DNA of 64,000 bases. It comes from Isurus oxyrinchus (Eukaryota). Shown here one piece after another: positions 4,191 to 64,000 of this stretch. The translations under genes were made by a program, and so were the position numbers. The notes under the pieces are model-generated. The model was not told where the DNA came from. It did no database searches and saw only the letters and a list, made by a program, of their open reading frames with translations. The stretch spans positions 1,054,001 to 1,118,000 of the forward strand of contig JANJGN010000100.1 in NCBI GenBank assembly GCA_026770705.1. Direction: 5' to 3'. Position 1 is the first letter of the stretch, and every line of letters starts with the position of its first letter.

Positions 4191-5103
4191 TAGGAAATGC
4201 CGGGGGTGGGGGTGGGGGTGGGGGGGGGGAATGGTGGTGGGGTTGGGGGGGGGGGGTGTTGGTGAATAATGAAGCATGATGATGGGCAGCTTTGTCCTGA
4301 ATGGTGTCAAATCTCGTAAGTGCTGTTGGTTCTGCACTCAGCATCAGGCTGTGTTTGTTCAGTTGACAGAAGAGAGTCAGCAATCATTTACTACAATGTG
4401 TCATGGGTGATCTGGTGTATCAGCACTGTGCCATATAGCTTGACCTCTGCTTTTCCCTTCCTCTCTGGCACAAGATGCTCCTTGCTAATGGAGCGATTTC
4501 AGGAGAGTCGGATGACCATCGTCTTTTCACTGTTATCATGTCCCTTCACTTTTTTCTGTCTGCATGTTATGTATTACTTCCATGGAAGTGTGGACGGGCC
4601 ATCTCAGTATCATTCTGTCTTCATTTCACACTCACACAATGCAGGCTGACCACTTCGAGTCACAAGAGAGTGAACAGGAGCCGTTCCCTACCTGATCTGC
4701 CACAGTAAATGCCTGGCTTAATGCCCTCTCATGGGCCTATGATTCATGTACCGCAGAATGGAGTGCATTTTGCCAATTCTAGCTCTCCCTACTGCGGGAT
4801 GAATCATGTGCTCTGGAAGTCAAGTCGATGTGTCTAATTACAACCATTAGCACTGTGCTCACCTAATGTGATGGGTGAAAAAAAACATTATCGCAGATTG
4901 AGCCAGGGAATAGTATATGTTCCTTTGACGCAGTGAAAGTATCTGGTGAACATTTAATTTTTAACATGCCATAAAAGTGTTATTTATCCTTTAAATGGTG
5001 TAACATTATTGAACAATATCATAATTTAGCTAAGGTTTTATAACGTTGGCTGCCATGGTTTGCTCCTTTGGGGGACCATGACTAACGCTGAGATAATGCA
5101 ATG

Positions 5104-5138
5104 TTATTGTCGCATGAGGCGATCACATTCGGTATAAG
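5104..5138 (+). promoter_or_regulatory. Putative degenerate promoter module of copy 1
   Basis: TTATTG-TCGCATGAGG-13 nt-TATAAG, about 70 nt upstream of ATG 5209, with the same order and similar spacing as the paralogues. Confidence 0.35.
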
Positions 5139-5208
5139 TGAGGTGTCATAGGAATGAATTGCAGCCGATGTGTGGTTGTTGTCTCCAGCACTTCGTTTCT
5201 CGCAGAGA

Positions 5209-7554
5209 ATGCACGCCGCGGGAAACAATCCAGTACTTCTTATTTACTATCCTATTCTACGTGTTGTCCGTGTGCTGGGTATGTTATTACAGAAACTTTT
5301 TTGTTTTAGGACATTGTCGCCTGCACTGAGTGTGTGGATTTTCAGCTGGTTTGTCTCATTGTGTTATCCAGACTTTCTTCCACTGCATCCTCAGCTGAAT
5401 GAGCTATGATCGAACGCCATTCAGGAACGGTGATAATGGCATGAAGCTGATGTGCTGGCTGAGGACTGAGCGATCAGGGAGAGATAGGGGAATCTCAAAC
5501 GCTATTGTGAATAAAGAGCAAAGGGTGAGATTCAAGGAATGGATCGGTTGGAGGCTTAGATGAATCAGAAAAAGAGTGTGCGCAGGTTTTGGTAACCATG
5601 ACTTGCTGTCACTTGCGATCCTTCACAACTGAAAGAAAGGCGAAAAGTTGATTATTCAGCTTTGAATGAGGCGAAGAATCCTTATGGACCAGGACAGTTT
5701 TGAGCTTGTGTGAGTCAGTGTTGCTTAAGGAGAAGATTGAGGGTTTGCTTCTCGTGGCGCATGGAATTGAAAGTCTATCTTCGGGTGTGGCGACAAGAGC
5801 AGTTTGAGGAGTTCTGGATGTCTTGCAGATATCTGTGATCATAACAGGAAGGCTGGGATTTCAGCTGGAATGCATGTGGAATGACGGGAACCCGGAGACA
5901 GTTGCTGAGGAAGGAAATGCGACTGTGAAAACCTAATTTGTTATTGCACATGTGAACAAAGATGAGATGCTCCTAATCAAGCGTCATCGACCTAAAACTT
6001 TAACTCTGTTTCTTACCACAGGTTCTGGCTCACCTGTCGACCATTTCCAGAATTTTTGGCTTTTTCTTCAGATTTCCAGCATCCATTATATTCTGCTTTT
6101 TAAAATTGGAGGTCCAGGTATTCTGTCTTCGGACAAGATCCCCGATATTAAGTAAATGGGCAGAAGTCAATACACATTCTCCTATGGACAGAGTTGCTGA
6201 AATTCTGTCTACCTTTTCAATATGTGTTTAAGTTTCTCAGACTGCTTTTTCAACCCCGAAACTGAAAAAAAATGAAATATCTGAGAAAACATTTTCTGAG
6301 GTGGGTATCTAACCAGCATGCTTATTGAAAAATGATTTCGCAGTCAGCCAGTTACTGCCACTTCGTGAATGATTTTAGTGGTTTTATTCAGGAAACTGAA
6401 CGTAGAGCTCCAATTTACTTTCTCAATCCAATGATCCTCAATCATTGCCACGATTCGACCATGCTCCTTTACATTAGCTGTTCCTGTTAACCTTCCTCAG
6501 CAACTGTCCACCTCCTACCAGAACAATCTCTCCATTAGGAATTATCAAACCCGTCTTGTGTGGTTCAAAACTAGAGGCATAAGATCAAAGAAACCGTTGA
6601 TGGGAGCAATGTTCAATTTTACTGATTGTTTATTTCTCTTTCTTACAACTAACTTTGTGACCATTGTGATCCTGTCCAGAGGATGATGCGGTCTCTCCAG
6701 ATGCATCACGCTTTACCTAGTGCCCATGGCAGTGACGGATCTCCTGGTCATTATCACCGCTGTGATATTAAACAGGGTTGTTGGTATATATTTCAGTTTC
6801 AGTGCGCTTTCCACCACTCCGGGCTGCACAGTAAGCTTTATCCTAACTTATGCTGCCACAGACAGTTGTGTGTGGTTGACGGTCACTTTCACTTTGAGAG
6901 GTTTTTCGCTATTTGTTGCCAGAAACTGAAAACGAAATACTGCAGTGAAAACGGCAGCGGCGGTGATAGCAAAAGTGTGCGCCCTGAGTTGTTTCAAAAA
7001 CACGCCGTCTTATCTCCCTTACGAACCGATGTTCCCAGTGGACAATGTTCAGTGGCTGTGCAACATCGAAGAAACATTTTAATCATCTCTTGGATGGACA
7101 CTGTATGACTGGCTTGACAGAATTTCAACGCCGTGCCTTCCATTATTCCTGTTGTTACTACTGAATGCTGTGACAGTTAGACATATTCTAGCGGCCAGTC
7201 GATTCCGAAGGAGACTCCAGGCCCACAGCAATGGAGCCAATCAGCGTGACCCAGAGATAGAGAATAGGAGGAGTCCATTATGTTACTCTTCCGTACTTCG
7301 GGCAGTTTCATCCTGTTATGGATGGTGTACGTTGTAAGCTTCTTTTATGTTTAAGTTACAAGCAATAATTATTTTTCAGGTTCCAATATCAATGACCAAA
7401 GATTCATCCTCCAAGAAACAGGTAATACTCTTCAATTTTTAAGTTCCTGCACCACCCCGTGCATTTATGCATTAACAGAGGGTAAATTCAGGCAGGAGTT
7501 AAAAAAATGGGATTAGGTATCCACTTTATTATTTTAAGATTAAGGAAACAATGA
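5209..7554 (+). pseudogene. GPR139-like GPCR pseudogene (copy 1): exon 1 5209-5278, exon 2 ~6649-7554
   Basis: Exon 1 MHAAGNNPVLLIYYPILRVVRVL-G|GTATGT. The acceptor is mutated (cttacAA|ctaac at 6647-6648). In-frame TGA at 6684 within SRG*CGLSRC, with frameshifts near the DRF motif and ICL3. Recognisable segments: MAVTDLLVIITAVILNR, DSCVWLTVTFT, DPEIENRR. Confidence 0.9.
5400..5930 (-). mobile_element. Probable L2-like LINE RT fragment in the intron of copy 1
   Basis: Decayed RT-like reading on the minus strand (F......S.ET.L.......LFAFLS). Family assignment is by resemblance only. Confidence 0.4.
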
Positions 7555-12302: not shown

Positions 12303-14900
12303 TTCCCCTCATTGAAAAATGAACAATCATAATTTTAACAAATAGCTTCATTTTTAATAATGGATCTTGCAGTATCTCCTCTGCTATCCCACTATTACTT
12401 AACCACATGCCTGCATTAACGTAACAATATATCTACATAACTCCTTTGTCTCAGCAGGAATCATTCCAGTTCAGTACCGTTGTTTTAAAATATCCAATTT
12501 TCCCTTTAATTTCAAAGTCCTGGGAACATATCTTCAATCAGATTCTCTGATCCAGTGACAAGTATTATTTGTAGACTTAATGGTTGCATTAATGAACTCC
12601 ACCTGATTGGCTTTGCACTTTTGTGTCGAAATTTGTCCAGAAGCTTTAAACGGTTGTGGCTTGTAAAAGCATTATTTTCTGATGAATGGTTTGCTGCATA
12701 TCTTTCAAAGTGCTGCAGTAGTAACACGAAATCCAACGTCTATTTTCAATAATTGAATATCTTCTCTGTTGAGTGTTCAAATTCCGTGAAAAGCATACGA
12801 TAGAATTTTCAATTGCAGCCTCATCTTTATGTAACATGATATTCCTACATCGCTTGCATCAACAGCCAACTTAAATTACTTGGACAACAAGGTACTGCCA
12901 AAACCGGTGTCATATTAACTACAGTTTTTAAAGTTTCAGGTGCCAGTGTCCATTAAAACCTCTTAATTTTTTAATACTTCAGTCAGTGGAGCAACCAGAC
13001 TGCTAAAATTTTGTACACATTTCTGGTAAAACCCACTCAGGTTGAGAAATTTAAAGCTTCTCATTTTGTTTTAGGCACTGGGAAATCCACGAAAACCTGA
13101 CTCGCATCTCTTGGAGCAGCCTTGCCATGTCCAATGTTATGGCCTAGATGCATTGCTTGTGCTTTTGCGAATTCACTTTTAGTCAATTTCATTACAGAAT
13201 TTGCATCTGGTAGTCGAGCAAAAAATTCTTCTGGATGTTGGAAATGCTCCTACCACGTCAGACTGAAAACAATTAAGTCATTAATATAAACAGCACAATT
13301 ACTTAAACGTGCCATTTTTTTTGTCAGACCTTGCTATGGTGCAAGTGCATTCTTCATACCAAATGTTGTGACTTTTAACTGATATAATCTATTTGGCTTC
13401 ACAAAAGCTGATATCTCATTTGCTCTCTCCAATAAAGATACTTGCCAATACCATTTTAGCATGTCATACTTTGTGATAAATTTTGATTGCCCCATTATCT
13501 CAATGCAATCTTGCAACTGTGATATAGGATAGTAATCGACTTGTGCCACTACTTTCAGATTTTGATCGTGCACACACCTTGTTTGTGTTCCATCTGGCTT
13601 TTGTACCAGTACAAGAGGCGAACTCCAGTTACTGCAACTAGAATCAACGATATCATTGTGAAGCATGAAATCAATTTCTTTCTGTACGTCTGATAGTTTT
13701 TCCAGATTTGATCTATAAGGTTGTTACCTTATTGAAGACGAAACATGTACAGACACATCATATATATATTAACACGTCCTCACCAACCTATTCACACAAA
13801 TAGGTTTTTGTGACTGAAAGACCTTCTCTGAATCACTCAGGATCACAATTACATTTTCATGTACTCCTTCATCAACCAGTTTGATTAGAGGAAAATCAAT
13901 TTCAGAGCCCATCACTTCCAGCTATTTCTCATCATCCACCATCACTAATGACTCTTTTTGTTCTTCATTAAATAGCTTAAACTCACTCAATGCCTTTTCA
14001 ATCCTGTTAGTCCTATTGAAACTTGTCTTTAATAGGTAATTTAGCACTGGTAAGGGAACAAGCACTTCTCTTCAGCAATTAAAAAATGCAAGGTTTAGCT
14101 TTCTTATCTGACTTCCCTTTCATCACTTTCTGTGATAAATTTAAATGTTCCCCAACCAAGTACCATGCTTTGTCTAATATCTCCCTGAGATTAGATACAT
14201 AATCCAGGAGAGTGGATTCATGATTTTGAACCACCAGTTTCTCATGAATCAATTTCAGTGGTCTCCTTACTTCAGGACCATTTACTACTTGAAAAGGAAT
14301 AAAAACGGTCGAGGCATTAGGAGCGTCCCAGTAACAATTAAAATAAAATGGAATTCCTTTGTCTCAATCCTGCAGATAATGTTTTTTTTTCAAGTTACAT
14401 GCCGTCTTTCCAAGTCGCTTGTGACTCGGGATGATAAGCTGTTGACCTACGTTGGTTAATTCCCAAACTGATCATTACTTCCTTAAACAGCTGCGACAAA
14501 ATATTTGAACCCTGTTCTGATTGTATTTACTTAGGTAAACTAAGTCATATAAAATGCATATAACTCTTCCAGAATCTTCTTAGCTGTAATATTTTAAAGA
14601 TATCCCCTTAGCAAATCTGGTAGACCCATACTTTATAGTCAGTAAGTACTGATTTTGACTTTTTAGTCATTGGAGAGGTCTTACACAATCAGTCATGGCC
14701 CTAGCAAATGATGCTTCAAATGCTGTTATTTGGAATAAAGGCCATGCTTGTGGTTCTCCTTTCATCTAACATGTGTAACATGTTCTACGGATTTTAATGA
14801 CATCCCTATGCAATCCTGACCAATAGAAACGCTTCTGTGCTTTTGCCTGTGCCTTTCTAATTCCTCATTATCCCCCCATTGGAATTTCCTGAGCCACCCT
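11539..14900 (-). mobile_element. Decayed Gypsy LTR retrotransposon of Gmr1 type (INT-RT-RNaseH-PPT-3'LTR)
   Basis: Order on the minus strand: integrase Zn-finger (..RFYWSGLHRDV..TCYTC, ~14770-14900) and core (NQYLLT, QSEQGSN), then RT (WSSPLVLVQKPDG, FGMKNA, AVYINDL, ~13250-13700), then RNase H (FKLAVDASDVG ~12845-12880, YFSRNLN..RYSIIE), then PPT GAGGGGAA at 12303-12310. Confidence 0.85.
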
Positions 14901-21222: not shown

Positions 21223-23518
21223 TCAATAGATATTGCATGCCATTTTTAACTCCTCCCTGAATTTGCTCTGGGTCCATGCATAAATAAACGGATTGATGCA
21301 GGAACTTAGAAGCTGCAGCATAAGGTCACGTTCTTCTAGAATATATGTTGATTTGTTGAAAATTGAACCTTCTAAATAACTAGCGCTCACAATTCGGACG
21401 TAGAGGAAATTTATAACAACTAATACACCTAACAGGATGAAACTGCCCGAGATTGTGAAAAGTAAAACGATGGACTTTCTCCTCTTCTCCATCTCTGGGT
21501 CACTCTGATTTTTTCCATTGCTGTGGGCTCGGAGTCTTCTGTGGGCTCGGCTTGCCCTGCCAATGTGCCTGACAGTCAGCACATTGAGTAGCAAAATACG
21601 GATAAATGCGAGACAAGGGATTAAAGCAGCATTTACGCTAACTTATGCAGCCCATCCGGGTGAAGTACAAGATACTGATTTCAATTTGCTGTACCAGGGT
21701 ACAATGTTAATGATAACAGAAGGTTCACAAGCTAAGTACAAGGGAACTTGTTTGGCACAGTGCAAAGTACAGACAGTTCCTATGACCACAGCCGCTGTTT
21801 ACTTCGTGCAATATTTGCGTTTCAGAAATTGGCAACAAATGGCTACAAATCAATCAAACGTGAAAGCGACTGTTAACCAGACAGATGAATCTCTGATACC
21901 ATATATTAAGACAAGGCTGAGAGCAAAGATCAGAGTGATGGAGAGAAAGCTGAATGGTAAATATTTACTTACAATCCGGTTTAATACCATGGCCATGATC
22001 ATGATCAGAAGATCCGTCACAGCCATGGACATCAAGTTGTAAGTGATACATCTGGAGAGACCACATCTTCCTCGAGATAGGATGACAATGATTGCCACGT
22101 TAGCTGTGACAGAAAAATATAGCCAGTGAATATGTGGTTGAGACAAATGAATATAGGACAAAAAACGCTGGAGAACTCACAGACCAGGAATCAATTATGA
22201 AGTGAAACATATTTAGTATTCCAGGTTTATGATGTTTCTGTTCCACTTGAGAAAAAATAACTTCATAAAACACAGCTAATCGTCAACACTGTACTGTGCT
22301 CCCTGCAAGAATATGGGCTAAGTCATATAGTTAACATTTAAATTCCTACTTCGTGACACATATATATGAAACAGAATTATGCCCCTGCATACTACCTAGA
22401 GATTAGATAAGGGAAGGACAGGACAGAATATTTGAAAATCGAAGAAACACAACGTTACTTCGACCTGAGGATTGGGCAGTAAATTCCACGGATACAAAGA
22501 TAAAATTCTTCCCATGGTGGCAGAATGAAGGATAATAACATTGAATAGAAAGGAAGTAGCTTGTTAGGAAAATTAAATATACCTGGATCTCCTGATTGAA
22601 AATTACCTGAAGTTAACAAAGCAGTGCTTCATGGCAGCGAGAAAAGCTACCCTCGTTTATAGATTCAGTTGGAGCTAAGTTGGTAGAAACATCGCTTCAG
22701 TGTCAAAATGTCATTGCTTCAGCTTTGAGAGCATGCTCTGCTGCCCCGGGTGCCACATTTTGGCAAAGCCGGTAAATGGAGGGTCCGTAATTTAATATGT
22801 TATGCAGGTTAATAAGGTACACGCTTTTCTAATTCCAGACAAAACGTAAAAAAAAGAGATAATGCCGTCTGTGTGTGTATAATGTATGTAAGAGAGATAC
22901 AGTCAGAATGTAACAATGGACCTACGCATGCAGTGCCACAAACACAATAGAAATATGCTTAGCAGTTTGAAGTATGTGATACTTCAGTATTAATGATGTC
23001 AGTCATAACATAAAATACATTTGAAACGTAAAATTATGGATGTAAGCAGAAGTTATCCAACTAAAGTATTGAAATATTACTGGCCAGTTAAAGGCAGTAC
23101 ATTGTTAAATTGGATAAAAATATACAGGCAATGGGAGGAAACCATTGTCAAGGGCTGGAATGACAACATTAAAATGAAGGAACCTCACCAGTGATGATAT
23201 GCAATCATGTCAGTAAATTGAAAAATTAAATGGAAAATTCTTCCTTAAGTTGAAGGAAGAAAATGCTCTAAAAGGCAAAAAAAGGGAGAATATCGCTGTA
23301 AAATTATTAGATTACACTGTTAAACGGGAGAACGAATATGATGGAAAAGTACTGATTATAAATGAGAGGAATCATGAACTCATATCAAAGAAAAGAGAAT
23401 TGATTAAACAATAATTCTCATAACTAATATCTAATGAGAATGGTTTACCTGGAATCCCGATCGCTGCAAGAATGGGGTAGTAAATGACAAAAACCAGATC
23501 TTTCGGTAATCCATGCAT
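21223..23518 (-). pseudogene. GPR139-like GPCR pseudogene (copy 2): exon 1 23518-23449, exon 2 22103-~21223
   Basis: Exon 1 MHGLPKDLVFVIYYPILAAIGIP-G|GTAAAC. Intact acceptor tttttctgtcacag|CTAAC. The DRF Arg codon is TGA (21850-21852), and two further in-frame TAA stops follow. The C-terminal half reads DPEMEKRRKSIVLLF...MLQLLSSCINPFIY...KFREEL. Confidence 0.92.
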
Positions 23519-23569: not shown

Positions 23570-23604
23570 TTTATATCTCAGTCCAGGCTCCAGGGAGATA
23601 ATTA
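23570..23604 (-). promoter_or_regulatory. Putative promoter module of copy 2
   Basis: The gene strand reads TAATTA-t-CTCCCTGGAG-12 nt-TATAAA, about 52 nt upstream of the ATG. Confidence 0.55.
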
Positions 23605-23739: not shown

Positions 23740-25230
23740 CTCAAAAGGCGGTGGCAATGGAAATAGTGGATGAGTTGGTGGTGAACTTCCAAAATTTTGT
23801 AGGTTCTAGAACAGTCCAAGCATATTGGAGGTTGGCAGATGCAAACCCACTCTTTTAAAAGAAGTGAGGAATAGGCAAATTATTAAACGCTGGTTAGCAT
23901 AACTTCAATAGTAGGGAAAATGCTAGAGTATATTATAACGAACGTGATAAAAGGACACTTAGAAAATATTAATGGGGTTGGATTAAGTCAGCGTGCATTT
24001 ATGAAAGCCAAATAACTTTCGACAAACCTACTGGCGGTTTTTGAGGACTTTAGTAGTAGAACAGATAAGGGAGAACCAGTTGTTGTGGCATATTCGGATT
24101 TTGGGAAAGCTTTTAATTAAGTCCAACGTAAGAGGTTAGTTTTCAAAACGAAATCACATAGGGTTGTGGGTGATTTATTTGCATGGATTGAGATTTGTTT
24201 AACACACAGGATATCGATAGTCGGAAAAAAAGTATTTTTCGAGCAGCAGACAATGACTACTGGAGTACTGCAGGGATCAGTGCTTGGGGCCCAACTATTC
24301 AATGATTTGGATGAGGGAACCAAATGTAATATTTCGAAGTTTACTTAGGACTCAAAATTTGGTCAGACTGTGAATGGTGAGAAGGATGTAAAGAGGTCTC
24401 AAGGCAATTTAGACACATTGAATGAGTGGCATATACATAGCAGATAAATTATATATAGGGTAACTGTGAAGCTGTCGACTTCGGTAGGAAAAGCAGAATG
24501 GCAGATTATTATAAATATAGTGATAGATTGGGAAACGTTGATACACAAAGGGACCTGGGCGTTCTTGTACACCAGTCGCTAAAAGCAAGTATACAGGTGC
24601 TGCAAGCAGTAAGCAAGGCAAATAGCATAATGTCTTTCATTTCAATATCATTTGAGAGCAGGAACGTAGATGCGTTGATATATCTGTACCAGGCCTTGGT
24701 GAAACCACACCTGGAATATTGTGTACAGTTTTGGTCTCCTTGCATAAGAAATGACATACTTACCATGGAGGGAGTGCAGCAAAGGTTCAGCAGACTGATT
24801 CTTGGGATAGCAGCATTGTCGCTTAGGGAGAGATTTGGTTGCCTAAGCCTGCACTCAATGGAGTTTAAAACAAATTGAAGCAAATGATATCCTGACATGG
24901 CTGGACAGGTTGCATGCAGAGATCATGCCAAATCTGGCTCTGGTGTCTAGGACAAATGGTCACAATTTTAGGACATTGGTGACAAAGATGAGGAGGAATT
25001 TCATCTCTCCAAGGGTGGTGAACATTTGTAAAGTTCTACCACAGAAGGATGTGGAGGTCAAGCCACTGATAATATTTAAGAAGGATACAGGTGGAATTCT
25101 CGACTTTAAAGGCCTCAAAGGACAGGGGGATAGAGCGGGAGCCTGACGATGAGGATCAGACATGTTCATATTGAAATGTAGAGCAGAAAAGGAGGACCGA
25201 ATGATATTCTCCCGTTTCAATTTTCAATTT
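23740..25230 (+). mobile_element. CR1 LINE RT and 3' UTR, decayed
   Basis: GVLQGSVLG, ISKF, QRDLGVLV, LVKPHLEYCVQFWSP, RRNFISPRVV. Confidence 0.85.
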
Positions 25231-33241: not shown

Positions 33242-34143
33242 TTATTGAACCAATTTACCAATTAGAGTGATAGGATATTCCAATATATTTCTTAACTGTT
33301 CCCTAAATTTCCTCTGGGTCACGGCATAAATAAACGTGTTTGTGCAGCAACTCAGCAACTGAAGCATATTTGCACTTTCTCGGAGAATATATTTGGGGTC
33401 ACTGAAACTTTTGATTTCATAATTGTTTGTAAATCGGTCATGAAAGAACTGTACAACATACGTTATCCACAACAGGATGAAACTACTCGAAATAGCAAAG
33501 AGTAAAATGATGGACTTTCTCCGATTCTCCATCTCTGGGTCATTCTTATTCTCTCTATTGCTTTGGGCCCAGAGTCGCCTGCGGGCTGTGTTTACCAATA
33601 GAATGTGCCTGACCGTCAGCACATTCAGCAAAAGAATCAAAAAGAAAGAGAGGCAAGGAGTTAAAATACGGTCTGACCAATCAAACGCTGTCCACACAAC
33701 TGAAGTATAACGTATATCCTTCAGTCTGCAATACCATGGTACATTGTCCAATATGTAAATCGGTTGGTGTATAAAATACCAGGGAATACATTTAAAACAA
33801 ACCAGTGCACAAACCATTCCTATCACCACAGCCGCCGTTTTCTCAGTGCAATATTTTGTTTTCAGCTTCTCATAAGAAATGGCCACAAACCGATCGAATG
33901 TGAAAGCGACTGTTAACCAGACGGAACTGTCTCTGGTTGCATGAATTAATGTAATGCTGAGGCTGCACACGGGAGTGATGGACATAAAACTACCTGGAGA
34001 ATAAATGCCAGGAATCCGATTTATTATGACTGCAGTGATAATAACGAGGAGATCAGTCACTGCCATGGACACCAGGTACTGAGTGATACATTTGGAGAGG
34101 CCGCACTTTCCTCGGGACAGGATCGCAATAGCCACCAAATTAA
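33242..34143 (-). CDS. Intact GPR139/GPR142-like class A GPCR (copy 3), coding exon 2 (TM1 to C-terminus)
   Basis: Polypyrimidine acceptor ...ctctctatcttccctgcag|TT AAT TTG at 34144/34143. Uninterrupted frame to TAA at 33242. 7TM motifs: VNLVAI (N1.50), MAVTDLL (D2.50), PVC, SSVWLTVAFTFDRF (compare GPR139 TSIWITVPLTIDRY), IPWYF, TPC, FILLW, ANMLQLLSCCTNTFIY (compare ANMLALLNTAINFFLY) and helix 8 QRKFREQL. Confidence 0.93.
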
Positions 34144-36589: not shown

Positions 36590-36659
36590 CTGGAACAGCG
36601 ATAGCTGCAAGGGCAGTGTAGTAAACGGCATATACCAAACCTCTTGGCGGGGCGTGCAT
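36590..36659 (-). CDS. Copy 3 coding exon 1: MHAPPRGLVYAVYYTALAAIAVP(V). The spliced product is 323 aa.
   Basis: ATG at 36659, 70 nt, ending CCAG|GTAAAT. The phase-1 junction G+TT gives Val in frame with exon 2, and 70+902=972 nt. Homologous 70-nt exons precede three paralogues. The intron spans 34144-36589. Confidence 0.88.
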
Positions 36660-36727
36660 TGTCAAAGAGAAGCAGCGCTTAGTTGTTGGGATCCTCCACG
36701 TGCACTGTTCGACATTCAAAGAATCCA

Positions 36728-36764
36728 TTATTATACCTCATGTCAATCCCAAGAGACATAATTG
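36728..36764 (-). promoter_or_regulatory. Putative proximal promoter of the intact receptor: homeodomain site, O/E(Ebf)-like site and TATA-like box
   Basis: The gene strand reads CAATTA-tg-TCTCTTGGGA-11 nt-TATAATAA, about 70 nt upstream of the ATG. Confidence 0.55.
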
Positions 36765-37067: not shown

Positions 37068-38288
37068 TTTCTGTTGTAACGTTGCTAGACACCTGCAAGT
37101 ACCACACCTGAAGAACAGAAGTAAGGAACCTTGTGTCCTCCTTGTAACCAAGATTCCACCCACTATGCTCCCCTGGTAAAGCCACATTCCTGAACTCGAC
37201 AAAGGAAGCCATTGCACCTGCACAAGCAATACTACAAACTCAAGATATTCACTTCAGGTATGCTAGGTCCCAGCTCCAGTGTTTTACCCGGTTTAACTGC
37301 TCTATTCCTTTCTACCTGCTAGAGTTAGAGCTAACAAAAATAGTTCTGCACCAGGTGACTCTGCATATTAATCCTCACAAGCGTCTGGATCCCGGCGCTA
37401 AATTTGGGAGAGCTGATGCAACCCTAATTCAGCAGCAACCAGACATAGACTTACACTCTGATCATGTCATCAGCCAATCTGCTGCAACAGCATCCCTGGA
37501 TTTGGCCTATCTCAGAAATACAACAACAACATTTAGATGTGACATTCAGACACAGTTAGGATCGTGTGGCGCAGAGAGTCAACATTATTGAGAATGCATT
37601 TCAAAGCTTTTAAGGTGCAGTAAGGATATCTCATTTTATTTAGAATAATGCTTTAATTGGAAAATTTAAAAAAGAGTTTAAAGTCAGTTTCAAAATGCCT
37701 CCAAGGTACCAAATGGTATTGTACATTTTAAAACAGGTCTTCTCTTCGGAGGGGCAAAGGACAATCTTTTATTTAATGATGGTTCGCTCAGGTCTCCTCA
37801 GGAGATAGCAAATGCTTTTTTTTTTTTCCGATGCCTTATCACAAATAAATGAATGTGTCTTAACCAGGACGAAACCTAAGAATGAGAGGTAGGAGAGAGT
37901 CTGCTTGAAGTGTCATTCCCTTATTTGGGAGATGACTTGGCATTTTCTACAAGTTTTGTGATTACAACGGCCATCATAGTTTACCTGCTAAAAACATTGA
38001 ATTTGTTAAGAAATTGGCTACAATAATGATACCCATGTTGAAGAAGCATCTCTCCAGGGAGAGACAGAGAAAGCAGCCTGAAAAGAGCTACTGTAAAGTT
38101 CTGCTGTAAAGTAACTAGGCAGTTACAAATGCCACACCTGCAGAACAGAAGTAAGGGGGCTTCTGCCCTCCCTGTAAACATGATTCAACCTACTAAGCTC
38201 ACCTGGTAAAGCAACATTTGGCAAAAAGACAGTGGAAGCCATCGCACCTGAACAGCCAAAACGACAACCTCAAGCTATTCAATTTAGA
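37068..38288 (+). repeat. Pair of ~190-bp diverged direct repeats (37068-37258 and 38099-38288)
   Basis: ccacacctg.agaacagaagtaagg...gattc.acc.acta.gctc.cctggtaaagc.acatt...ggaagccat.gcacctg occurs at an offset of 1030 bp. Confidence 0.8.
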
Positions 38289-45057: not shown

Positions 45058-45096
45058 GAATTGCCCCTCTAGCGGTGAGCATTAGATATAAATGTG
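45058..45096 (+). promoter_or_regulatory. Putative promoter module of copy 4 (degenerate HD and O/E sites, clear TATA)
   Basis: GAATTG-CCCCTCTAGCGG-11 nt-TATAAA. The context AGATATAAATGTG is identical to copy 2. Confidence 0.45.
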
Positions 45097-45154
45097 TATG
45101 CCACTCAGCTTAAATTAGAGGGAAGAAGACAACAGCATAGCACTTTCACAGAAA

Positions 45155-47878
45155 ATGCATGCTCCAGGAAATGGACCAGTATTTCCCATTTATATTTCTG
45201 TTCTTGCTGCTTTCGGTGTTCCAGGTAAACTTCTGGCGAAAGTGAATAACTGGGCAGTCAATCTTTAACTGCGCTATCTATGAGTTGTTCATTGCTTACC
45301 ATAGATTTCATGCATTTTCTCTCTGCTGCTTTAAGAGCATTGCATTTCATTACTGCAGTACGACTGCTCTAAACTACGTGCCTTCTGTGGTCTCTTTTTG
45401 AAAGATAGGTTTATGTCCGTCTCTGTAATAAAGGACCCAGTTAGGATATTAATGTCCTGTGGATTATTGTAAGGAAATTGTGTTCTATGACATGCTGTTG
45501 AACGTTCAAGACGCATTATGATACATCCATGTCTACAAACTGCGCTGGAATTACATAATTTTATTCACCCCTCACAGTTCCATGGATATTCCTCTTGCGT
45601 TGACGATTTTCCACTGCCAGCTTTTCTTAAATGTCAACGGCATAGATAGATGTAGACGATAGAAATGCAAAAAAAAATAAAACAATGGTATTAATATCTT
45701 GGACAATGTAATGCACTCTGTGTAAAGGGGTTTAAACTAGGTTAGAAGTACTGAAGCAGGTTGATATGATTCTTTTCTTTCTGTTGTTGTTTCCATCTTG
45801 ACAGAAGTGCTTGTAACATATTGAGCATGTTCAGCAATTTTTGTTTACACTCCTCACATTTGCAGTTGCTACTTTTGCATGGAGTGACGTTATCATACCA
45901 TTATAATCAACAAGATTTTATGAAGATCGTGAATAGATCCTGATATTCTTGATAAACTTTAGCTGTTTCAGCAACTTTGTCAATAAATGTATGTTATTGT
46001 CCAGGCTGTATGTGACCTTTCAGAGAAGAAGTTAATTCTACTCATACTCAGGCAATTTGTTTCCCTGAAAAATATTGTCGAATTATCCTGTTCCACCAGG
46101 AGGCAGTAAGTCTGAACTCCGCTCCAAATCCCGAGTCTGTAAAAAAGGTCCGTATTCCCCGTGCATTGTTGGAGAATTGCAACACCATCAGGTCTGCCGT
46201 TTTTCTGAGGAAATGTTCAGTGGAGGTCGTCCTGCTCCTTTGATTACAGGACTCCGTGACAATGTTGGAATATCATATTTCTCTATCCTTGAGCCAGAAA
46301 CAATCATGCACCGACAACGTATGTCAGAATAAAATGCAGAGGAATCTCTAATCTCCCTTCTTACTGGAGCAGGATCTTGCTGGCGATAGCACCTCGCTAT
46401 AATGGATCGAATCGACTGCAGAAGAACTGCTGACCCTCCTTGACTTCGGTTCACAGGAGTAGAGGCCGATTACAATCAACATGATTGGTGCAAGACTTTA
46501 TTTTCCTCAGCCTTGATCCTCAATTACATTTATTATTGCCTCCTTATTAACTATATTTTAATTCCTGTCATTTGCTTTATTCTTTTTTTTTATTCCAGTT
46601 CTTCCGCAGTTCTTATAGTCAGCATTTACTATGGTTAAAAAAGAATCACCGTATTGAATTTTATTATAAGTACTTTTGCGCCAATGTAGCTATTTCATCC
46701 TTGTAATACCTTTAAAAACTATGTTCCATCCACTTGGATAATTTCTAAAATTTGCATGAATATAAAAGAAAGAAATGCTATGTTTTACTAGATGTTCGGC
46801 ATTCCAATTTTATTTGTAAGTAATTTGTTTTGTTCGACAAAGAGTAATACATTGGTAAACCAATCAGCGTCAGTGTTGATCAGTGCAAATTTTATCCCAC
46901 CCTGCCGCCAAAGTGATGTTGCAGCTGTGACTGTGATCATTAACACCGGTCCTTCTCTCTGTCTTATAGCTAACTTAATGACGATTGTGCCCCTATCCCA
47001 AGGAAAATGCGGTCTCTCCAGATGCATCAGTTCCGACTTGTCATCCATGGCAGTGAATGACCCTCCTTGTCATTATCACTGCTGTGATATTAAGCTGGCT
47101 TCGCGCTATTTCCCACTTAGTTTCCTGTCCAGTACCCCTGCCTACAGCGTGGTTATTGTCCTCAACTATGCTTCCAGAGACAGTTCTGTCTGGTTAATTG
47201 TCGCTTTCATCTTCGATCGCTTCATGGCCATTTGCTCCCAGCAGCTGAAATTAAAATATTGCACTGAAAAAAAACAGCAGCTGTGGGAAGTGGAATGGTC
47301 TGTGTGCTGTTCTTTTTGAAAAACGCCCCGTTTTACTTTATATATGAACCTATAGGTGTAATTAATAACGTACCATGGTACTGCAAAATAAGGAAAATCA
47401 CTTATGTTTCGGTGCAATGGAGAGTATTTGACTGGTTGGACCGTATTGTAACTCCATGTCTTCCTTTCATCCTGATCTTTCTGCTCAGTTTACGGACTGT
47501 CAGACATATTATATCAGCCAGTCGAGCTCGGAGGAGACTCCGAGCCCAAAACAGGGGAGAGAATTAGAGTGACCCGGAATGGAGAGCCGCAGAAAGTCCA
47601 TCATTTTACTTTTCGCCATCTTGGGCAGTTTCCTTCTGTTTTGGTTGACATATGTTGTAAATTTCCTATTTGTACAAATTTCAGGTAATGACTTTTCGGT
47701 AGGTTCTAACTCCAACGACCCAAAATCTATCTTGCAGGAAAGCGGGTACATGCTGCAACTCTTGACTTCCAGCACCAATACGTGTATATATTCAGGGACC
47801 CAGACAAAATTCAGGGGAGAGTTGAAGGACGCAGTCAAACACGCCTTCAATGTAATTAAGAAATGGCACAAAAACTGA
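45155..47878 (+). pseudogene. GPR139-like GPCR pseudogene (copy 4): exon 1 45155-45224, exon 2 46970-47878
   Basis: Exon 1 MHAPGNGPVFPIYISVLAAFGVP-G|GTAAAC. Acceptor tctctctgtcttatag|CTAAC. Compensating frameshifts at ~47060 and ~47100, a frameshift at the A-run 47267-47274, and TAG at 47565-47567 plus a 1-nt loss in DPEM. Retains RDSSVWLIVAFIFDRF, NVPWYC and STNTCIY. Confidence 0.92.
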
Positions 47879-47927
47879 AGATAGCTATAAAAGTTATTGC
47901 AGTTACCCTGCCTCCGTTTCTAATTAC

Positions 47928-47933: not shown

Positions 47934-50312
47934 GAAGAGCAGAAAGTTTAGCCAGCATTCGGCCGATGTGCACAGTGTTCAATTCTATTATCGGTCTTAA
48001 TGTTCATAAATTTACGTGTGCCTCAGCAACTGATATTGTGATCTTTTGCTATGGTACTGGGATGGCTACGAAGAGTTCCAAGTCCCACGGGAGGAATTTG
48101 TAAAATTGAACATAATTAAATTCTGTTTGCTTTTGAGTTGGCATCGAACATATCGATGAAGAATCACAGGGGATCTGCACGCACGCATCTTGTTTCATAT
48201 TGCCGTTCAGGCAATGGATATTGTCAATTATCCCGAGTCAAGTCTACATATAAATCCAATCCCACACCACGTTATTGATTCTGATTTCCGTCATAGACAC
48301 TTGGAGAGGCCTTTTGGCACATTTACGTATTCACCCCGGGCTACTTTTGGCGTTGCTGATTGGTAGGCCGCTCCAGGAAGAGACTGACGTTAATTTATAT
48401 TGGTTTTCTTAGGCTGCATATTTGATAGCTTCCATTTAGATTGAACATTGCGTTCCACTATTTTTGATCTAATGATGATAAACGGCCTTGTCAATCAAAA
48501 GGAGGGCAATGCTTGCCATAGTTACATAATATTTTTCATTTTATGTATTCATTTTGGGAGAGCAAGGCTGAAGTTGATGACTTTTTATAACCTATTGCCC
48601 GGGCAAGTTGTATAATCCAATTTTCTCAGATCATTGATGATCATATATTGATTTGGCAAAGTTTTCAGGGAACATTGATGCAACTAATCAGCGTTTTTCA
48701 TCATAGGCTATATTCCGCTACAAATATTATTTCTAGCTGGCCACATCTTACTTTTTGGTGTTTAGGAATTCAACTCTTATGTATCAGTGATATCCTGGCT
48801 TAAGTGCTAGGCAATTGAATTCTCAAACATCGCTCAGTTCCTTTCAACGTTTGCTTTATACATTTCATTCAAAGTGTTTCCCTCTCCATCTCATGCTCTC
48901 TCTCATTCTCGCTCTCTCTCCTCCATCCGCTCCCACCACGTGTCTCTCTCTCTGCATTGTCATTTTTATACTTGTCCCTTTCTGCAACTTCCAACTCTCT
49001 GTCAATGTCAAGTCGATGTAAACTTTATTGACAGCTTCATTTTTTATAAGCACCAACATTTTTCCCCAAATTGATGCAGATTCATCATATTTATAGGCCA
49101 TGATTAAACGTTGTGCGAGTCCGCGAGGTGAAGGTGTTCATAGTATGGGCAATAATGGAATTAGTCATTATACAAGGAAAAAAGCAAATGCTCAAAAATG
49201 CTCGAAATTTAGGAAGGGCAGGCAAAAAGACAAAGGAGATCAGGCATCGCTGATAATACAGGATGAGACACTACATTAGTGACAGAGGATCTTAGATCAG
49301 ACGAACAAGATGTAGCATCAGTTTGGATGGTGCTAAAAAAAAAGTAAGGACTGCAAAATTTAATAAGGGCTATTTATAGGCAAACAAATGTTAATGGTAG
49401 TTTAGGGCACTGAACAATCAGAAAAATGGAGCTGCATGTAACAACTGTCATGGAATAGTCATAATATTCTTAAATCTACATATTAACTTGGTAAACCTAA
49501 TGAGCACTAATGTTTAGGATGGTTTCCAGGAGCGACTAAAAGTTGGCTAACAAAAGCAGAAAGTTGAGGAACCAACCACGGAACAGGGAAGTCTTGGTGC
49601 AGCATTGTGCAGCGTGAGAGGGATAATTAATAATTTTATTGTAAAACAGCCATTCCAGAAGTGTGACCATTGTATGACATTGTTCCATTAAGTTTGAGAA
49701 CAATGACGTTCAATCTAAAGCTATAATCTTATTCCAAGCAAATGAAACAATTGCGGTAAGAGGGACAATTTGCATGCAATGCATTAGCAAAACAAATTAA
49801 AAGGTAAATGACTGGATACGTTCAATGGCTAGTATTTCAATAACTAATACATAATTTACAAAAGAAACATTCCCCTAAGGCGCTCAAACCAGAAAGGAAA
49901 TGTGAATCACCGATGGCTAACAGTGGAAGTTAACAATTGCAATAGATGAAAGGAAGAGGTTACACATTTACCAAAAATAAAGCAGCAAGCCCGAGGGTTA
50001 GGAACATTTTAGAATTCACCAATGGGAGCCCAGGAAACTGGTCAAGAAAGGGAGAATAGAATATGAATGAAAACGAACGAGAAACATAAGAACGGACAAA
50101 CAGTGTCTATAGGTCCGATAATATTAAATGTTTATTAGGGACGAATGTGGCCCCACTACAGGAAGAGTCAGGAAAATTTATCATTAATCATGTGAAATGG
50201 CAGAGATGATATTTAATTACTTTGTCATCACGATGAAATTACAAGAAATCCCCTAGGAGCAATAGAGAACCAACGGGTCAGTGAGAATCAAGAACTGAAG
50301 GAAATCAGTATT

Positions 50313-51369
50313 GCCACCACCAAACACATCTTCCCTTCACCCCCCTTATCGGCATTCCGTAGGGATCGCTCCCTCCGGGACACCCTGGTCCACTCCTCCA
50401 TCACCCCCTACTCCTCAACCCCCTCCTATGGCACCACCCCATGCCCACGCAAAAGATGTAACACCTGCCCTTTCACTTCCTCTCTCCTCACCGTCCAAGG
50501 GCCCAAACACTCCTTTCAAGTGAAGCAGCATTTCACTTGCATTTCCCCCAACTTAGTCTTGTGCATTCGTTGCTCCCAATGTGGTCTCCTCTACATTGGA
50601 GAGACCAAACGTAAACTGGGCGACCGCTTTGCAGAACACCTGCGGTCTGTCCGCAAGAATGACCCAAACCTCCCTGTCGCTTGCCATTTTAACACTCCAC
50701 CCTGCTCTCTTGCCCACATGTCTGTCCTTGGCTTACTGCATTGTTCCAGTGAAGCCCAACGCAAACTGGAGGAACAACACCTCATCTTCCGACTAGGCAC
50801 CTTACAGCCTTCCGGACTGAATATTGAATTCAATAACTTTAGGTCGTGAGCTCCCTCCCCCATCCCCACCCCCTTTCTGTTTCCCCGTTTTTCCCTCCTT
50901 TTTTTTCCCCTATAAATTTTATACATTTTTCTTTTCCCACCTATTTCCATTATTTTTAAATATTTTAAAATCTTTTATGCTCCCCCCACCCCCACTAGAG
51001 CTGTACCTTGAGTGCCCTACCATCGATTCTTAATTAGCACATTCGTTTAGATAATATCACCAACTTTAACTTTAACACCTATGTGTTCTTTTGTACCATT
51101 GTCGCTGACATCTTTTGATGATCTGCTTCTATCACTGCTTGTTTGTCTACACAAGCACCTCTCTCTCTCTCTATCTCTCCGCCACCCCCCCCCCCCCCCC
51201 ACACACACACACACACACACCTTAAACCAGCTTATATTTCAACTCTTTCCTGGACTCGAAATCAAGTTCTGTCGAAGGGTCATGAGGACTCGAAACGTCA
51301 ACTCTTTTCTTCTCCGCCGATGCTGCCAGACCTGCTGAGTTTTTCCAGGTAATTCTGTTTTTGTTTTGA
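50313..51369 (+). mobile_element. Young 5'-truncated Penelope-like element with an intact GIY-YIG endonuclease frame and 3' UTR
   Basis: Open frame 50313-50849: AFRRDRSLRDTLVHS...CPRKRCNTC...NLVLCIRCSQCGLLYIGETKRKLGDRFAEHL...GLNIEF*. The 3' end reads tgctgccagacctgctgagtttttccagg. It interrupts a CR1 element. Confidence 0.9.
51265..51303 (+). ncRNA. Minimal type I hammerhead-ribozyme-like motif in the Penelope 3' UTR
   Basis: Stem I AGTT/AACT, core CTGTCGA (variant of CUGANGA), stem II GGGTC/GACTC, then GAAAC-GTC with palindromic ACGT as stem III. Confidence 0.6.
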
Positions 51370-56830: not shown

Positions 56831-58029
56831 AAATGGCAGTCGCTCAGATCGTTGCTTATTGGCTTCTGCTATTGCCGTGATATGAAATTGAACATAAATA
56901 ATTTCCCTGAAGAATTTTAAGGGCGTTTCTTTCGTGATCCCAAATTGGCAATGTCACGATTTGTGAGGAGAGATGACAATATTACAAGAGAATAAGAAAC
57001 CCACCCCCCCCCGCCAAAAAGTAGCATTTCCGGGAGTTGTTTCGAAAATCTAATTGGTACAGATGTCCGGGTTTTACTGTGGTGGTTGAGTGGTGGGGGG
57101 GGGGGGGGGGGGCGGGGGCAAGGGGGTTGGGGTGTTGGTTGGGGTGAGGGGATGGTATTGAAGATGTTGGATGTCTTTATCTGACGAGGCATCTTGTTTT
57201 CTTGGGTTATAGAGGAGAATCGGAAGCTACTTGTATCCACAGTGTGGTGAATTGGGACAAAATATGGCGGAAACCAAAGTTAAAATACTGTGTAGTGTAC
57301 AGGACATAAGTGTGGGAAGTCGAGTAGTGTCCCATGGCCTGTACAATGCACTGCGAGTGTAATATCGGAACAGTTCAGCACTTACCATCCGAAAAATTCC
57401 ACTAATCCTGCCTATCACGTGATGGCCAGACCTTATGCACTGCAATCCTGGCCTGTCAAGTTTGGAGGGAAACAGTCCAGTTAATGAATAATCAGCAACA
57501 AATGCGTTAAAAAATGGCAATGGGTCGTCAGCTTGCAGAAGGCTATGAAGGGGTATAACAGTGTATATTTCCACAAGGAGGAATATGAGTAATTGCTTGG
57601 CAGTACTGATCCTGAGTGTTGCTGAGAAAAGAGAGAGGCTGTCGAAACTTTCATTTTTGCACTCATCAGGGCAAACACAAGAATGTCGAATTTCAAGGGG
57701 AACAACAAGGTGTAATGCATGAGCTAAAGCGTTGTGATTGGTTGTCAAGTCAGTTCTGATTATTCTAGACGTTGTCATGGCTGCCACGCAACAAGGCAGG
57801 ATTAAGCAGCGCCTTTTCCTCTAATTATTCCGCATTGCGCTAAACCAAAAACTGTAGCTGCTGGAAATGTGCAGCCAAAATTAGAATAGCCTGGCTGGTC
57901 TGGCAGCTCATGTAGAAAGCGGCAAACATAGCTAAACTTTCGGGTCTCAGGGACATTTAAGGTAATAAATGCTGCCCTTATCAGTGAAGCCCGCATTCCA
58001 CGGTCTACATTTGAAAAAGAGAGTCATTG

Positions 58030-58890
58030 AACATTCCAGCACATGCCTTGGTCCCTTTTGGAACTTACGCTGGGTGTATCCATAATTACACTTGATGCAA
58101 CGGCTCAGGAGAAGCTGCATTGCCCCACTTCCTCCAGCATTAAAGTTGAGGTAATTTACTTATAAGCTGTGAAATATGAAATATTGCAGTTAGTTAATAC
58201 ATAATGCTTACTATCATACTGCCCACAGTAGGAAGAGACTGCCTGAAGAGTAAAATGTTGGAATTTATCTGGCTCTGCATCTCTGGCCCCTTCTCATTCT
58301 CCGCATTGTCTTTGGTGCCAGAGAGTCCAGCAGATTTCACAGGCAGCGAATTGAATGCATGGAACGTTTAAAACGTTGAGATGAATAATACAAGAAATGG
58401 AAGTAAGAAGATAAAACGTGATTTATCTAGTGGGTTCTTACTCCTGCAAATGAAACGTAGAAGTGTAATTCGATACTTCAAAATGATGCACTTTGTTATT
58501 TACCCTCACTGATTCATGCACAATGTACCTCAGGTTTATTTTTGTTCAACTTTTTAAAGCACAAAAACGAACATATGGGCACTTCTCCTAGAGAAATATC
58601 GCAACTTCATATTCGGGCAACGAACACATATGTAGTCATCGAAGGCGAGAGTGACGAATAGTCGGACAGAACAATCCTCTGGATGCAGATAGAGCATCGT
58701 GCTGACGTCACTGGTAGAGTGGTGAATGCCAAAGTAACCCACAGTTAAACGCCACTCACTGAATGTAAGAAGCAGCGATAAAACCAGTAGATTGGTCGCT
58801 GCCGTGAATGACGAGTGATGCGCCTGGAAAGAACGCTGCCCCACGAAAAAGCAGCGCAGAGGACAATAATTATCATTTTTTGGAGACCAG
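58030..58890 (-). pseudogene. Ancient, highly decayed GPR139-like GPCR relic (copy 5)
   Basis: Collinear fragments across frames: VLSRRIT (~GLSRCIT), AATNLLVL (~AVTDLLVI), DCSVRLFVTLAFDDYICVRCPNMKLRY (~DSSVWLTVAFTFDRFVAI..KLKTKY), ENEKGPEMQSQINSNILLF (~ENKNDPEMENRRKSIILLF), SLFLLWA, and TQRKFQ at ~58060-58075. Confidence 0.78.
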
Positions 58891-59954: not shown

Positions 59955-60850
59955 TGAAAAATGTGGTTAATAGTGAGGCTGAGTGTTTGAACTCCAGGAA
60001 GGCATACACGGGATGGTCAAGTGGGCAGATAAGTGGTAGGTGGAATTTAATCCTGAAAAGTGTGAGGTGATACACTTTGGAAGGAGTAATTTGACAAGGA
60101 AGTATTCAATGAACGGCACGACACTAGGAAGTTTTCAGGAACAAAGGGGCCTTGCCCTTTGTGTCCATAGATCTCTGAAGGCGGAGGGGCATGTTAGTGG
60201 GATGGTGAAAAAGTCATATGGAAGACGTGCCTTTATCAATCGAGGCATAGATTAGAAAAACAGGGAGGTCATGTTGAAGTTTTATCGAATCTTGGTGAGG
60301 CCACAGTTAGAGTACTGTGTGCAGTTCTGGTCGCCACATTATAGGAAGGATGTGCTTGCACTGGTGGGGGTGCAGAGAAGATTCAACCGGATGTTGCCTG
60401 GAAATAAACATTTAAGTTATGAAGAGAGGTTGGATAGACTGGGGCTGTTTTTGTTGGAGCAGAGAAGATGGAGGGGCGACCTGATCGAAGTGTACAAGAT
60501 TATGAGTGGCATGGACAGGGTGAATAGGGAGCAGCTGTTCCCCTTAGTTGAAGTTTCATCACAAGGGGGCATAAGTTCAAGTTAGGGGGCAGGATGAATG
60601 TGAGGAAACTCTTTTTAACCCCGACAGTGGTGATGGTCTGGGATGCGCTGCCTGGAAGCGTGGTGCAGGTGGGTTGCCTCACATCCTTTAAAAACTACCT
60701 GAATGAGCAGTTGGCAGGTCAGAACATTGAAGACTTTGGGCCAAGTGCTGGCAAATGGGATTAGGTAGGTAGGTCAGGTTTTTCTCATGTGTTGGTGCAG
60801 ACTCGATTGGCCGAAGGGGCTCTTCTGCACTGTGTGATTCTGTGATTCTA
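59955..60850 (+). mobile_element. Relatively well-preserved 5'-truncated CR1 LINE
   Basis: FNPEKCEVIHFG, LVRPQLEYCVQFWSPHYRKD, RGDLIEVYKI, and a terminal 8-nt repeat tgtgattc x2. Confidence 0.9.
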
Positions 60851-62385: not shown

Positions 62386-64000
62386 CATAGAGTCATAGGA
62401 TCTAGGAGCAGGAGTAGGCCATTCTGCCTTTCCAGCCTGCTCCGCCGTTCAATATGATCATGCCTGACCATTTATCTCAAAGCCATATTGCATCGTTCTC
62501 TCCATACCCCCGATGCAATAACATCCAAAAAAATTATTTTCTTTCTTGAATACACTCAGTGGCCCGTCCTGCACAGACTTCGGTGGTAAATAATTACACA
62601 GTTTGAAGAACATCTAGGTGCAGAACGTTTTCCTCGTGTCAACCCGAAATGGCCTTTCCCATATCCTGAGATTCTGGCCCCTGGTTCTGGACCCTCAGCA
62701 TTATCCCTGCATTAGCCTGTCTAGACCTCTTTGAATTTTATGCATTTCAATCAAATCCTTTCTCATTCTTCTGAATTCTAGTGAATACACTCCAAGTTGA
62801 ACCAATCTCTCCTCAGATGACAGTCCTGCCATCCCCGGTATCAGCTTCACCAAGGCCTTGTATAACTGGATTTAAGACGTTGTTACTCCTGGACTCAATT
62901 TGTCTTGCAATGAAGGCCTATAATTTGGCGTCGTAATTGCTTGCTGCACCTGCCTGTGTACTTTCATTGGCTGGTGTACAAGGACACCCGGATGCCTTTG
63001 TACATCCACATTTCCCAATATATCACCACTGAAATAATACTGTGCCTTTCTGTTTATCACATCGAGACATAAACCTTCACATTTATCTACGTTATACTGC
63101 AACTGCTTTGTGTTTGCCCACACACACACACATATTGTCTAAATTGCCCTGAAGCCTCCTTGCATCCACCTAACAACTCACAACCCCGCCCAGTTTCCTG
63201 CCATCCCCATCCACGCCATTCATATATATCGTGAAGAGTTGTGGCCTGCAGGTATGCCACAAGTCACTGCCTGCTACATGGTAAAAAGACTCATTTATCC
63301 CCACTTTCTGTTGCTGGTCTGTTAAACATTTCTCAATCCATGCCGGTATATTACCCCCGATCCCATGTGCTTTAATTTTGCCCACTAGCCACTTCTGTGG
63401 TACCTTCTCAAAATCCTTCTTGAAAGCCAAATACATCACACACACTGGTTCTCCCTTATCTATTCTACCAGTTACATCCTTAAAAACTCCAGTAGATTAG
63501 TTAAGCATGATTTCCCTTTCTTAAACTCATGCTGACTTTGTCTAACCCTGTTAATGCTTTCCAAGTCTCATGTTATCACGCATTTTAAAATAGACGCTAG
63601 CGTTTTCTCCATTCCTCATATTAGGCTCACTGATCTGTAATTCTCTATTCTTTTTCTCTCCCTCTTCTTTTAAATAGTAGGGTGACACTTGCCACCCCTC
63701 AATCTGTAGGAACTGTTCCAGAGCCTGTAGAATTTTTGAAGATGACCTCCAATGCATCTAATATTTCCAGAGGCACTTCCTTTATTACTCTCGGGTGTAG
63801 ATTATGGCCCTGGGGATTTTTCAGCCTTTAACCTTATTAATTTCTCTAGCACCATTATTTTTAACTAATACTGATTTTCATCAATTCCTCCCCCTCAATA
63901 TAATCTTGGTTCCCTCACAATTCATGGAAATTATCTGCGTCCCCTTTTGTGAAGACAGAATAATAATATATGTTTAATTCCTCTGCCATTTCTTTGTTCC
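62386..64000 (-). mobile_element. CR1/HER1-type LINE, tail-to-tail with the previous copy and continuing beyond the window
   Basis: aggagcaggagtaggccattc tail, MYLAFKKDFEKVP and KIKAHGIGG. Confidence 0.85.

Follow-up and report, generated by a model that had tools for sequence, protein, structure and literature searches.

In the mouse, promoters of olfactory receptor (OR) genes are reported to be enriched in O/E and homeodomain sites, and a subset of them carries a TATA box (PMC3247239, PMC12547500). A homeodomain and an O/E site standing side by side as a composite mark the mouse OR enhancers known as Greek Islands but, in the accessible text of these papers, are depleted from OR promoters (PMC5608512, PMC11643329, PMC12547500), so that an earlier sequence-only reading of the present locus, which took this adjacency as a hallmark of OR promoters and enhancers alike, is supported for the enhancers and not for the promoters. 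The spacer of the Greek Island composite is 1 nt (PMC5608512, PMC11643329, PMC7804114). For mouse V1R genes, O/E-like sites were also reported in each of the 39 promoters studied (PMC3247230).

Sharks have a keen sense of smell and very few known olfactory receptor genes (PMC10116579, PMC11979771), and the surveys of these genes, in their accessible parts, cover four known families. The V1R sites matter here because the olfactory neurons of sharks are microvillous (PMC10116579) and the shark nose is V2R-dominated (PMC11979771, PMC6368271). Here, we describe a module upstream of a shark receptor gene and its paralogues that has a TATA box and, in two copies, candidate homeodomain and O/E (EBF) sites.

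Four paralogous receptor genes in the window

Self-comparison and translation of the window, by which we mean the whole 64-kb stretch of shark DNA analysed, revealed four paralogous two-exon class A GPCR genes, copies 1 (+), 2 (-), 3 (-) and 4 (+), with 66-69% identity among their second exons (Table 1). Copy 3 is intact, and copies 1, 2 and 4 are pseudogenes with in-frame stops, accompanied by frameshifts in copies 1 and 4. The coding part of exon 1 has the same length in each copy and ends at a GT donor, and the N-terminus encoded by exon 1 of copy 3 is the start of most full-length homologues. A fifth relic of the family, older and heavily decayed (~25-30% identity), lies at 58010-58730 (-); profiles of exon 1 and of the module described below found no fifth copy of either in the window, including at this relic. 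No Rfam family was matched in the window. Retroelement remnants are present at 13334-13723 (-) and 63170-63496 (-), as weak RVT_1 matches, and at 24459-24878 (+), 60256-60585 (+) and 50217-50849 (+), as LINE/Penelope-like pieces judged by eye only.

Table 1. Positions in the window of the four gene copies and of the modules upstream of them
Feature	Position	Strand	Details
Copy 3 homeodomain-type hexamer	36759..36764	-	CAATTA (other strand TAATTG)
Copy 3 O/E (EBF)-like 10-mer	36747..36756	-	1 mismatch vs consensus
Copy 3 TATA box	36730..36735	-	predicted start A at 36706 (YAG, +29)
Copy 3 exon 1, coding	36590..36659	-	70 nt, 23 codons + 1 nt, GT donor
Copy 3 exon 2	33242..34143	-	with exon 1, intact 323-aa 7tm_1 receptor
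Copy 2 module	23570..23604	-	TAATTA 23599-23604; O/E-like 23587-23596, 1 mismatch; TATAAA 23570-23575; predicted start 23545
Copy 2 pseudogene	21244..23518	-	exon 1 23449-23518 (70 nt), exon 2 from 22103; three in-frame stops; approximate 3' end
Copy 4 module	45058..45092	+	GAATTG; degraded O/E position 45066-45075, 3 mismatches; TATAAA 45087-45092; predicted start 45117
Copy 4 pseudogene	45155..47881	+	exon 1 45155-45224 (70 nt), exon 2 from 46970; frameshifts, one stop; approximate 3' end
Copy 1 module	5104..5138	+	TTATTG; degraded O/E position 5112-5121, 5 mismatches; TATAAG 5133-5138; predicted start 5163
Copy 1 pseudogene	5209..7505	+	exon 1 5209-5278 (70 nt), exon 2 from 6649; acceptor reads CAA; stops, frameshifts; approximate 3' end

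A module of fixed geometry precedes each first exon

All four copies carry a gapless module consisting of a hexamer, 2 nt, a 10-mer, 11 nt and TATAA, with 29 nt from the start of the hexamer to the TATA box, while TATA-ATG distances range between 57 and 76 nt. The sequence-only reading had proposed a module conserved in position; the four strings it quoted are present on the gene strands where the modules of Table 1 begin, and the conservation is stricter than it claimed, its differing spacers (0, 1 or 2 nt, then N11-N13) having arisen because the O/E site was read in different registers. Over the 29 nt before TATA, gapless identity was 0.506, whereas sets of four randomly drawn TATAA sites gave 0.263 ± 0.035, and 0 of 200,000 draws reached 0.506. 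The module also ranked first among 11 non-coding 29-mers tested (mean z 2.6; runner-up 1.7). blastn returned no convincing alignment of the introns or of the 2 kb upstream of the four copies.

The surroundings of the copy 3 promoter are AT-rich (GC 0.30 over 200 nt). Just before the copy 4 TATA, CATTAG at 45080-45085 (+) is the core of the Rhodes Lhx2 probe, with copies 1 and 3 one base off, and a second ancestral homeodomain site possibly stood at this position. Between 0.3 and 1.5 kb upstream of copy 3, a 189-nt element is duplicated at 37069-37257 and 38099-38287, its two copies being 77% identical; close by, an O/E-like 10-mer lies at 37169 and a sequence matching the O/E consensus perfectly at 38051.

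Homeodomain-type and O/E-like sites are retained in two copies

O/E sites were scored against the published consensus TCCCYNGRGA (PMC3247239). In the homologous register and the best orientation, the 10-mer has 1 mismatch in copies 2 and 3, 3 in copy 4 and 5 in copy 1; in the best register, copies 1 and 4 have 3 mismatches each. Approximately 2% of window positions fit the consensus with up to 3 mismatches in one orientation, and copies 1 and 4 do not rise above background in their matches. Copies 2, 3 and 4 retain the palindrome's symmetric C-C / G-G positions. A TAAT core is found at the homologous place in two of the four copies, again 2 and 3, and TAAT/ATTA occurs anyway about 8 times per 600 nt. 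The claim that all four copies carry the sites is not borne out, good O/E sites with a TAAT core being confined to copies 2 and 3; these are the intact gene and the copy that had been named as the best matches.

Pairs of any TAAT core and an O/E site with at most one mismatch (spacer 0-4) occur three times in the window compared with 1.5 expected, and two of the three are the promoters of copies 2 and 3. At two mismatches, the same search is at background (18 found, 18.6 expected). Outside the promoters, a pair with at most one mismatch is present in 0.13% of 100-nt tiles, which agrees with the view that an adjacent pair this good is rare. Since copies 1-4 share one ancestor, the pair counts as a single draw, with a chance of roughly 0.1-3% depending on stringency. 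The pattern YAATTR-NN-O/E has both of its two matches at the promoters of copies 2 and 3; we prefer the wider pair tests because this narrow pattern was fitted after the data had been seen. A second homeodomain, 2 nt and O/E-like pair with 2 mismatches lies at 4719-4736 (+), 414 nt upstream of the copy 1 TATA, and is within chance expectation, as is a pair at 63799+.

Compared with a neutral expectation, the module shows no excess of identity (0.51 versus 0.54-0.56 for exon 2 positions that are four-fold degenerate; P=0.83). Its least conserved part is the O/E 10-mer, which at 0.43 falls below those positions. At the level of substitutions, conservation therefore does not go beyond neutral paralogy, an outcome that the sequence-only reading had itself named as counting against it, although spacing and alignability stand out against introns and UTRs. 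When neutral decay from a perfect ancestral pair was simulated, two or more of the four copies still had the pair with P of 0.25, 0.07 and 0.02 at branch lengths of 0.25, 0.35 and 0.45, and TATAA was retained in all four copies with P of 0.008-0.0003. In the tree, the pseudogene branches are 0.26-0.43 long compared with 0.12 for copy 3; copy 2 has the longest of them, yet both of its sites are kept, and the loss of sites in copies 1 and 4 fits pseudogene decay. Given the lack of excess over four-fold sites, decay probabilities of 0.02-0.25 and the retention of the sites on the long copy 2 branch, selection on both sites is not established by this analysis of four promoters, two of them with good sites.

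There is a real though less than even chance that only the TATA core was selected, and that the homeodomain and O/E appearance arose by chance in one ancestral sequence, or belongs to another factor's site, and was spread by duplication. The low identity of the O/E 10-mer, the loss of the pair in two of four copies, the lack of a match to the published 20-mer composite in any of the four and their descent from a single ancestral draw are all consistent with such an origin. However, at one mismatch that draw has a chance of just 0.1-0.2% per 100 nt, and at two mismatches of 3%; homeodomain plus O/E is the first pair to look for in a GPCR cluster, and no indels interrupt the spacing to TATA, whereas the 5' UTR differs in length among the copies. 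We consider a homeodomain and EBF input to the promoter plausible, the odds lying slightly on its side.

An expanded receptor family of sharks and rays

The genes had been described as GPCRs other than ORs, and the family data confirm it: Pfam assigns 7tm_1 only and not the OR profile 7tm_4, and an OR structure ranks far below solved GPR139, the best solved-structure match. A homologue search returned 2,717 proteins at E≤0.001 among 3,997 candidates. Among the best 120 matches, 119 are named, and all 119 are from sharks and rays, mostly labelled 'probable G-protein coupled receptor 139'; the same 120 hold at least 29 Heterodontus (horn shark) and at least 18 Heptranchias (sevengill shark) clusters, which gives a lower bound of family size. 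The label is a loose one because the match to solved GPR139 has an E value of only 7e-7, and true GPR139 is no more than a distant relation. Neither the high identity nor the kept ligand pocket of a GPR139 orthologue was found, the TM6 Arg of the GPR139 ligand pocket being replaced by Tyr in 76 of 80 shark and ray proteins, so that the GPR139 ligand cannot be carried over and amino-acid ligands are not to be assumed. The N-terminus is short, with a sequon in 4 of 80 proteins, and internal variation peaks in ECL2 and ECL3, the tail being variable too. Nearer relatives with 26-33% identity are found in coelacanth, newts and teleosts and may be the orphans GPR210A/B of PMC6504862. In comparison with GPR139/GPR142 and GPR210A/B as covered in the accessible text of that paper, strong expansion appears only in chondrichthyans among the matches listed.

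A careful tree was built with 34 of the 119 named homologues, picked to span clades, and rooted at the midpoint; a quick tree had 123 rows. A single clade of copies 1-4 was rejected (p-AU 0.0004), as was a clade of copies 2 and 3 (p-AU 0.003). A 100/98 branch separates copy 2 from copy 3, and several mixed shark and ray groups fall on the copy 3 side, which suggests that, provided the root is not inside the copy 3 group, the two copies probably split before sharks and rays diverged. The elasmobranch ancestor is dated to more than 270 My (PMC11979771). In two proteins, P0049 and P0027, exon 1 is of the type found in copy 4 or copy 2 but exon 2 belongs to a different clade; either the gene models are mis-joined or exons have been exchanged within the cluster. 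In the open literature, subscription papers aside, we found no description of the chondrichthyan expansion or of its promoter, and the accessible parts of PMC12294341 and PMC13113109 hold nothing on the GPR139-labelled expansion.

Is the family olfactory?

With its tandem array, many pseudogenes, short N-terminus and variable ECL2, ECL3 and tail, the family behaves like a chemosensory one, and the module hints at an overlooked family of chemical sensors. That its members act as olfactory receptors is a tentative reading. They might form a further olfactory repertoire of cartilaginous fishes, used in sparse microvillous neurons under Lhx2/EBF control, an explanation to which we would give rather less than one chance in two. 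The shark family has an intron within its coding region, unlike OR, V1R and TAAR genes, which are not known to have one there, and the 2-nt spacer departs from the mouse composite. A tandem birth-and-death cluster with one intact gene, three pseudogenes and one relic in 64 kb, the horn-shark and sevengill-shark clusters among the best 120 matches, the short N-terminus and variable loops, the O/E-like sites of V1R promoters (PMC3247230) and the microvillous olfactory neurons of sharks (PMC10116579) all suit a repertoire of this kind. On the other hand, the catshark work, in its accessible parts, assigns the nose to V2Rs, has no GPCR in its top-50 brain plus olfactory list and reports shark OR genes as expressed mostly outside the nose (PMC11979771); the list is a weak argument because the sparse V2Rs are also missing from it. 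Our search of the literature found no expression evidence for the family.

EBF and homeodomain sites are not specific to the nose, and it is possible, if rather unlikely, that the pair is real and drives expression in other EBF-positive cells, such as central or sensory neurons, solitary chemosensory cells or B cells. A large tandem family rich in pseudogenes argues against this, since families of this kind on the scale of hundreds are more typical of chemosensory receptors, although the family size given here is a lower bound. EBF works in B cells, and many neurons use EBF and LIM-homeodomain factors; in mammals, GPR139 is a brain receptor and GPR142 an endocrine one, which would favour such cells. 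So would the wide action of EBFs in neurogenesis and adipocytes (PMC3113313, PMC5411707) and the expression of many shark chemoreceptor-family genes in spleen, testis or ampullae (PMC11979771).

A probable core promoter and its predicted start site

In all four copies, a YAG follows TATA with its A in the initiator position (+29 or +30), compared with 10% of 193 random TATAA sites, as would be expected of the promoter that had been proposed. The pyrimidine fraction before this YAG is 0.39-0.56 compared with 0.67-0.89 at true acceptors, and so weak a tract speaks for an initiator rather than a splice acceptor; no other YAG precedes the ATG of intact copy 3. The identity of the module, its rank among non-coding segments, the position of the YAG and the age of the duplications together make a TATA-type core promoter likely, and from these comparisons we are fairly confident that the block is such a promoter, real and ancient. 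It is improbable that the block is intronic and the YAG the acceptor of an upstream non-coding exon. In favour of this reading, YAG is what an acceptor would also show, a second CAG directly ahead of the copy 1 ATG follows a pyrimidine-rich tract (0.72), and several gene models join upstream exons near the start codon; the weak tract, the lack of an alternative YAG in the intact copy and TATAA at the canonical distance in four of four copies argue against it.

Pyrimidine-rich stretches ending in CAG before the ATG, at 5190-5208 (+) and 45140-45154 (+), are conserved in copies 1 and 4; they have no acceptor counterpart in intact copy 3, and similar residues precede the start Met in gene models of other species. 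When 270 proteins were scanned for N-terminal extensions as promoter readouts, one usable but ambiguous model was obtained. This gene model, from the zebra shark, has Tyr-Lys 19 codons before its start Met, equal to the 57-nt TATA-ATG distance of copy 2, while the residues corresponding to the homeodomain and O/E sites do not match, which a splice junction could explain; the model weakly supports the position of TATA and says nothing firm on the sites. The stingray model P0107 was discarded as a readout, its upstream residues having no match.

Discussion

We propose that the block is the ancestral proximal promoter of the receptor family, in which TATA would act with an initiator 29-30 nt downstream to give a short 5' UTR of ~28-47 nt ahead of the 70-nt first exon. 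Homeodomain and EBF (O/E) sites at fixed spacing directly upstream would place a LIM- or paired-type homeodomain protein and an EBF dimer beside TFIID. The intact gene and copy 2 would have kept the sites, which would have decayed in pseudogenes 1 and 4. Expression would be likely in sensory or neuronal cells that are EBF-positive, the olfactory epithelium being the single likeliest candidate tissue. As a whole explanation, an ancestral promoter with homeodomain and EBF input is one that we modestly favour, its start site, bound factors and tissue being predictions from DNA sequence.

Should the core promoter alone be real, the result would amount to a modest addition to the annotation of an orphan family. 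If, however, this large tandem GPCR family does have an EBF/homeodomain promoter, it becomes a candidate for a missing repertoire of sharks and for an independent recruitment of a GPCR lineage to olfactory gene control, and an olfactory role, if true, would revise the view of a shark nose run by a few dozen V2Rs. The receptor expansion itself is apparently unstudied. More speculatively, and with doubt prevailing, sharks and rays may have a strongly expanded family of olfactory receptors, so far undescribed, that derives from GPR139/142-related orphans and was recruited to olfactory neurons before the shark-ray split by a hard-wired homeodomain-EBF-TATA cassette copied with each gene.

The comparisons that follow refer to the accessible text of the mouse papers. 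Mouse V1R promoters (PMC3247230) are like the shark module in serving class A receptors of microvillous neurons and in having O/E-like sites near the start; they are unlike it in that the receptor family is unrelated and a fixed homeodomain-O/E-TATA spacing is not described there. With mouse OR proximal promoters (PMC3247239, PMC12547500), the module shares a TATA box, AT-rich surroundings (copy 3) and clustered receptor genes and, in copies 2 and 3, candidate O/E-like and homeodomain sites within 100 nt of the predicted start. A TATA box at -60 to -10, as in a subset of OR promoters, is present in all four copies, with the YAG at +29/+30, and an O/E site near the predicted start has 1 mismatch in two copies and is at background level in the other two. 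In contrast to the mouse promoters, the shark sites are adjacent and fixed relative to TATA, belong to a family other than ORs and stand in a promoter directly on a coding first exon.

Like the Greek Island composite (PMC5608512, PMC11643329, PMC7804114), the shark module has a homeodomain hexamer followed by an imperfect O/E palindrome, and CTCCCTGG is found both in copy 2 and in the OMP O/E probe of the Greek Island work. Unlike it, the shark O/E site lies one base further out, the module is promoter-proximal rather than intergenic, and the TAAT core of copy 3 is on the opposite strand. An equation of the 2-nt spacer with the mouse spacing was dropped, since the probe control shows 1 nt. Against the published 20-mer pattern, the shark copies have 2-3 mismatches compared with 0 in the Sfaktiria control, and 3.7-12% of positions fit it as well as the shark copies do. 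Since the composite has a 1-nt spacer and the shark copies mismatch its pattern at 2-3 positions, the module appears OR-promoter-like in content and stands outside the composite class, with a fixed geometry of its own.
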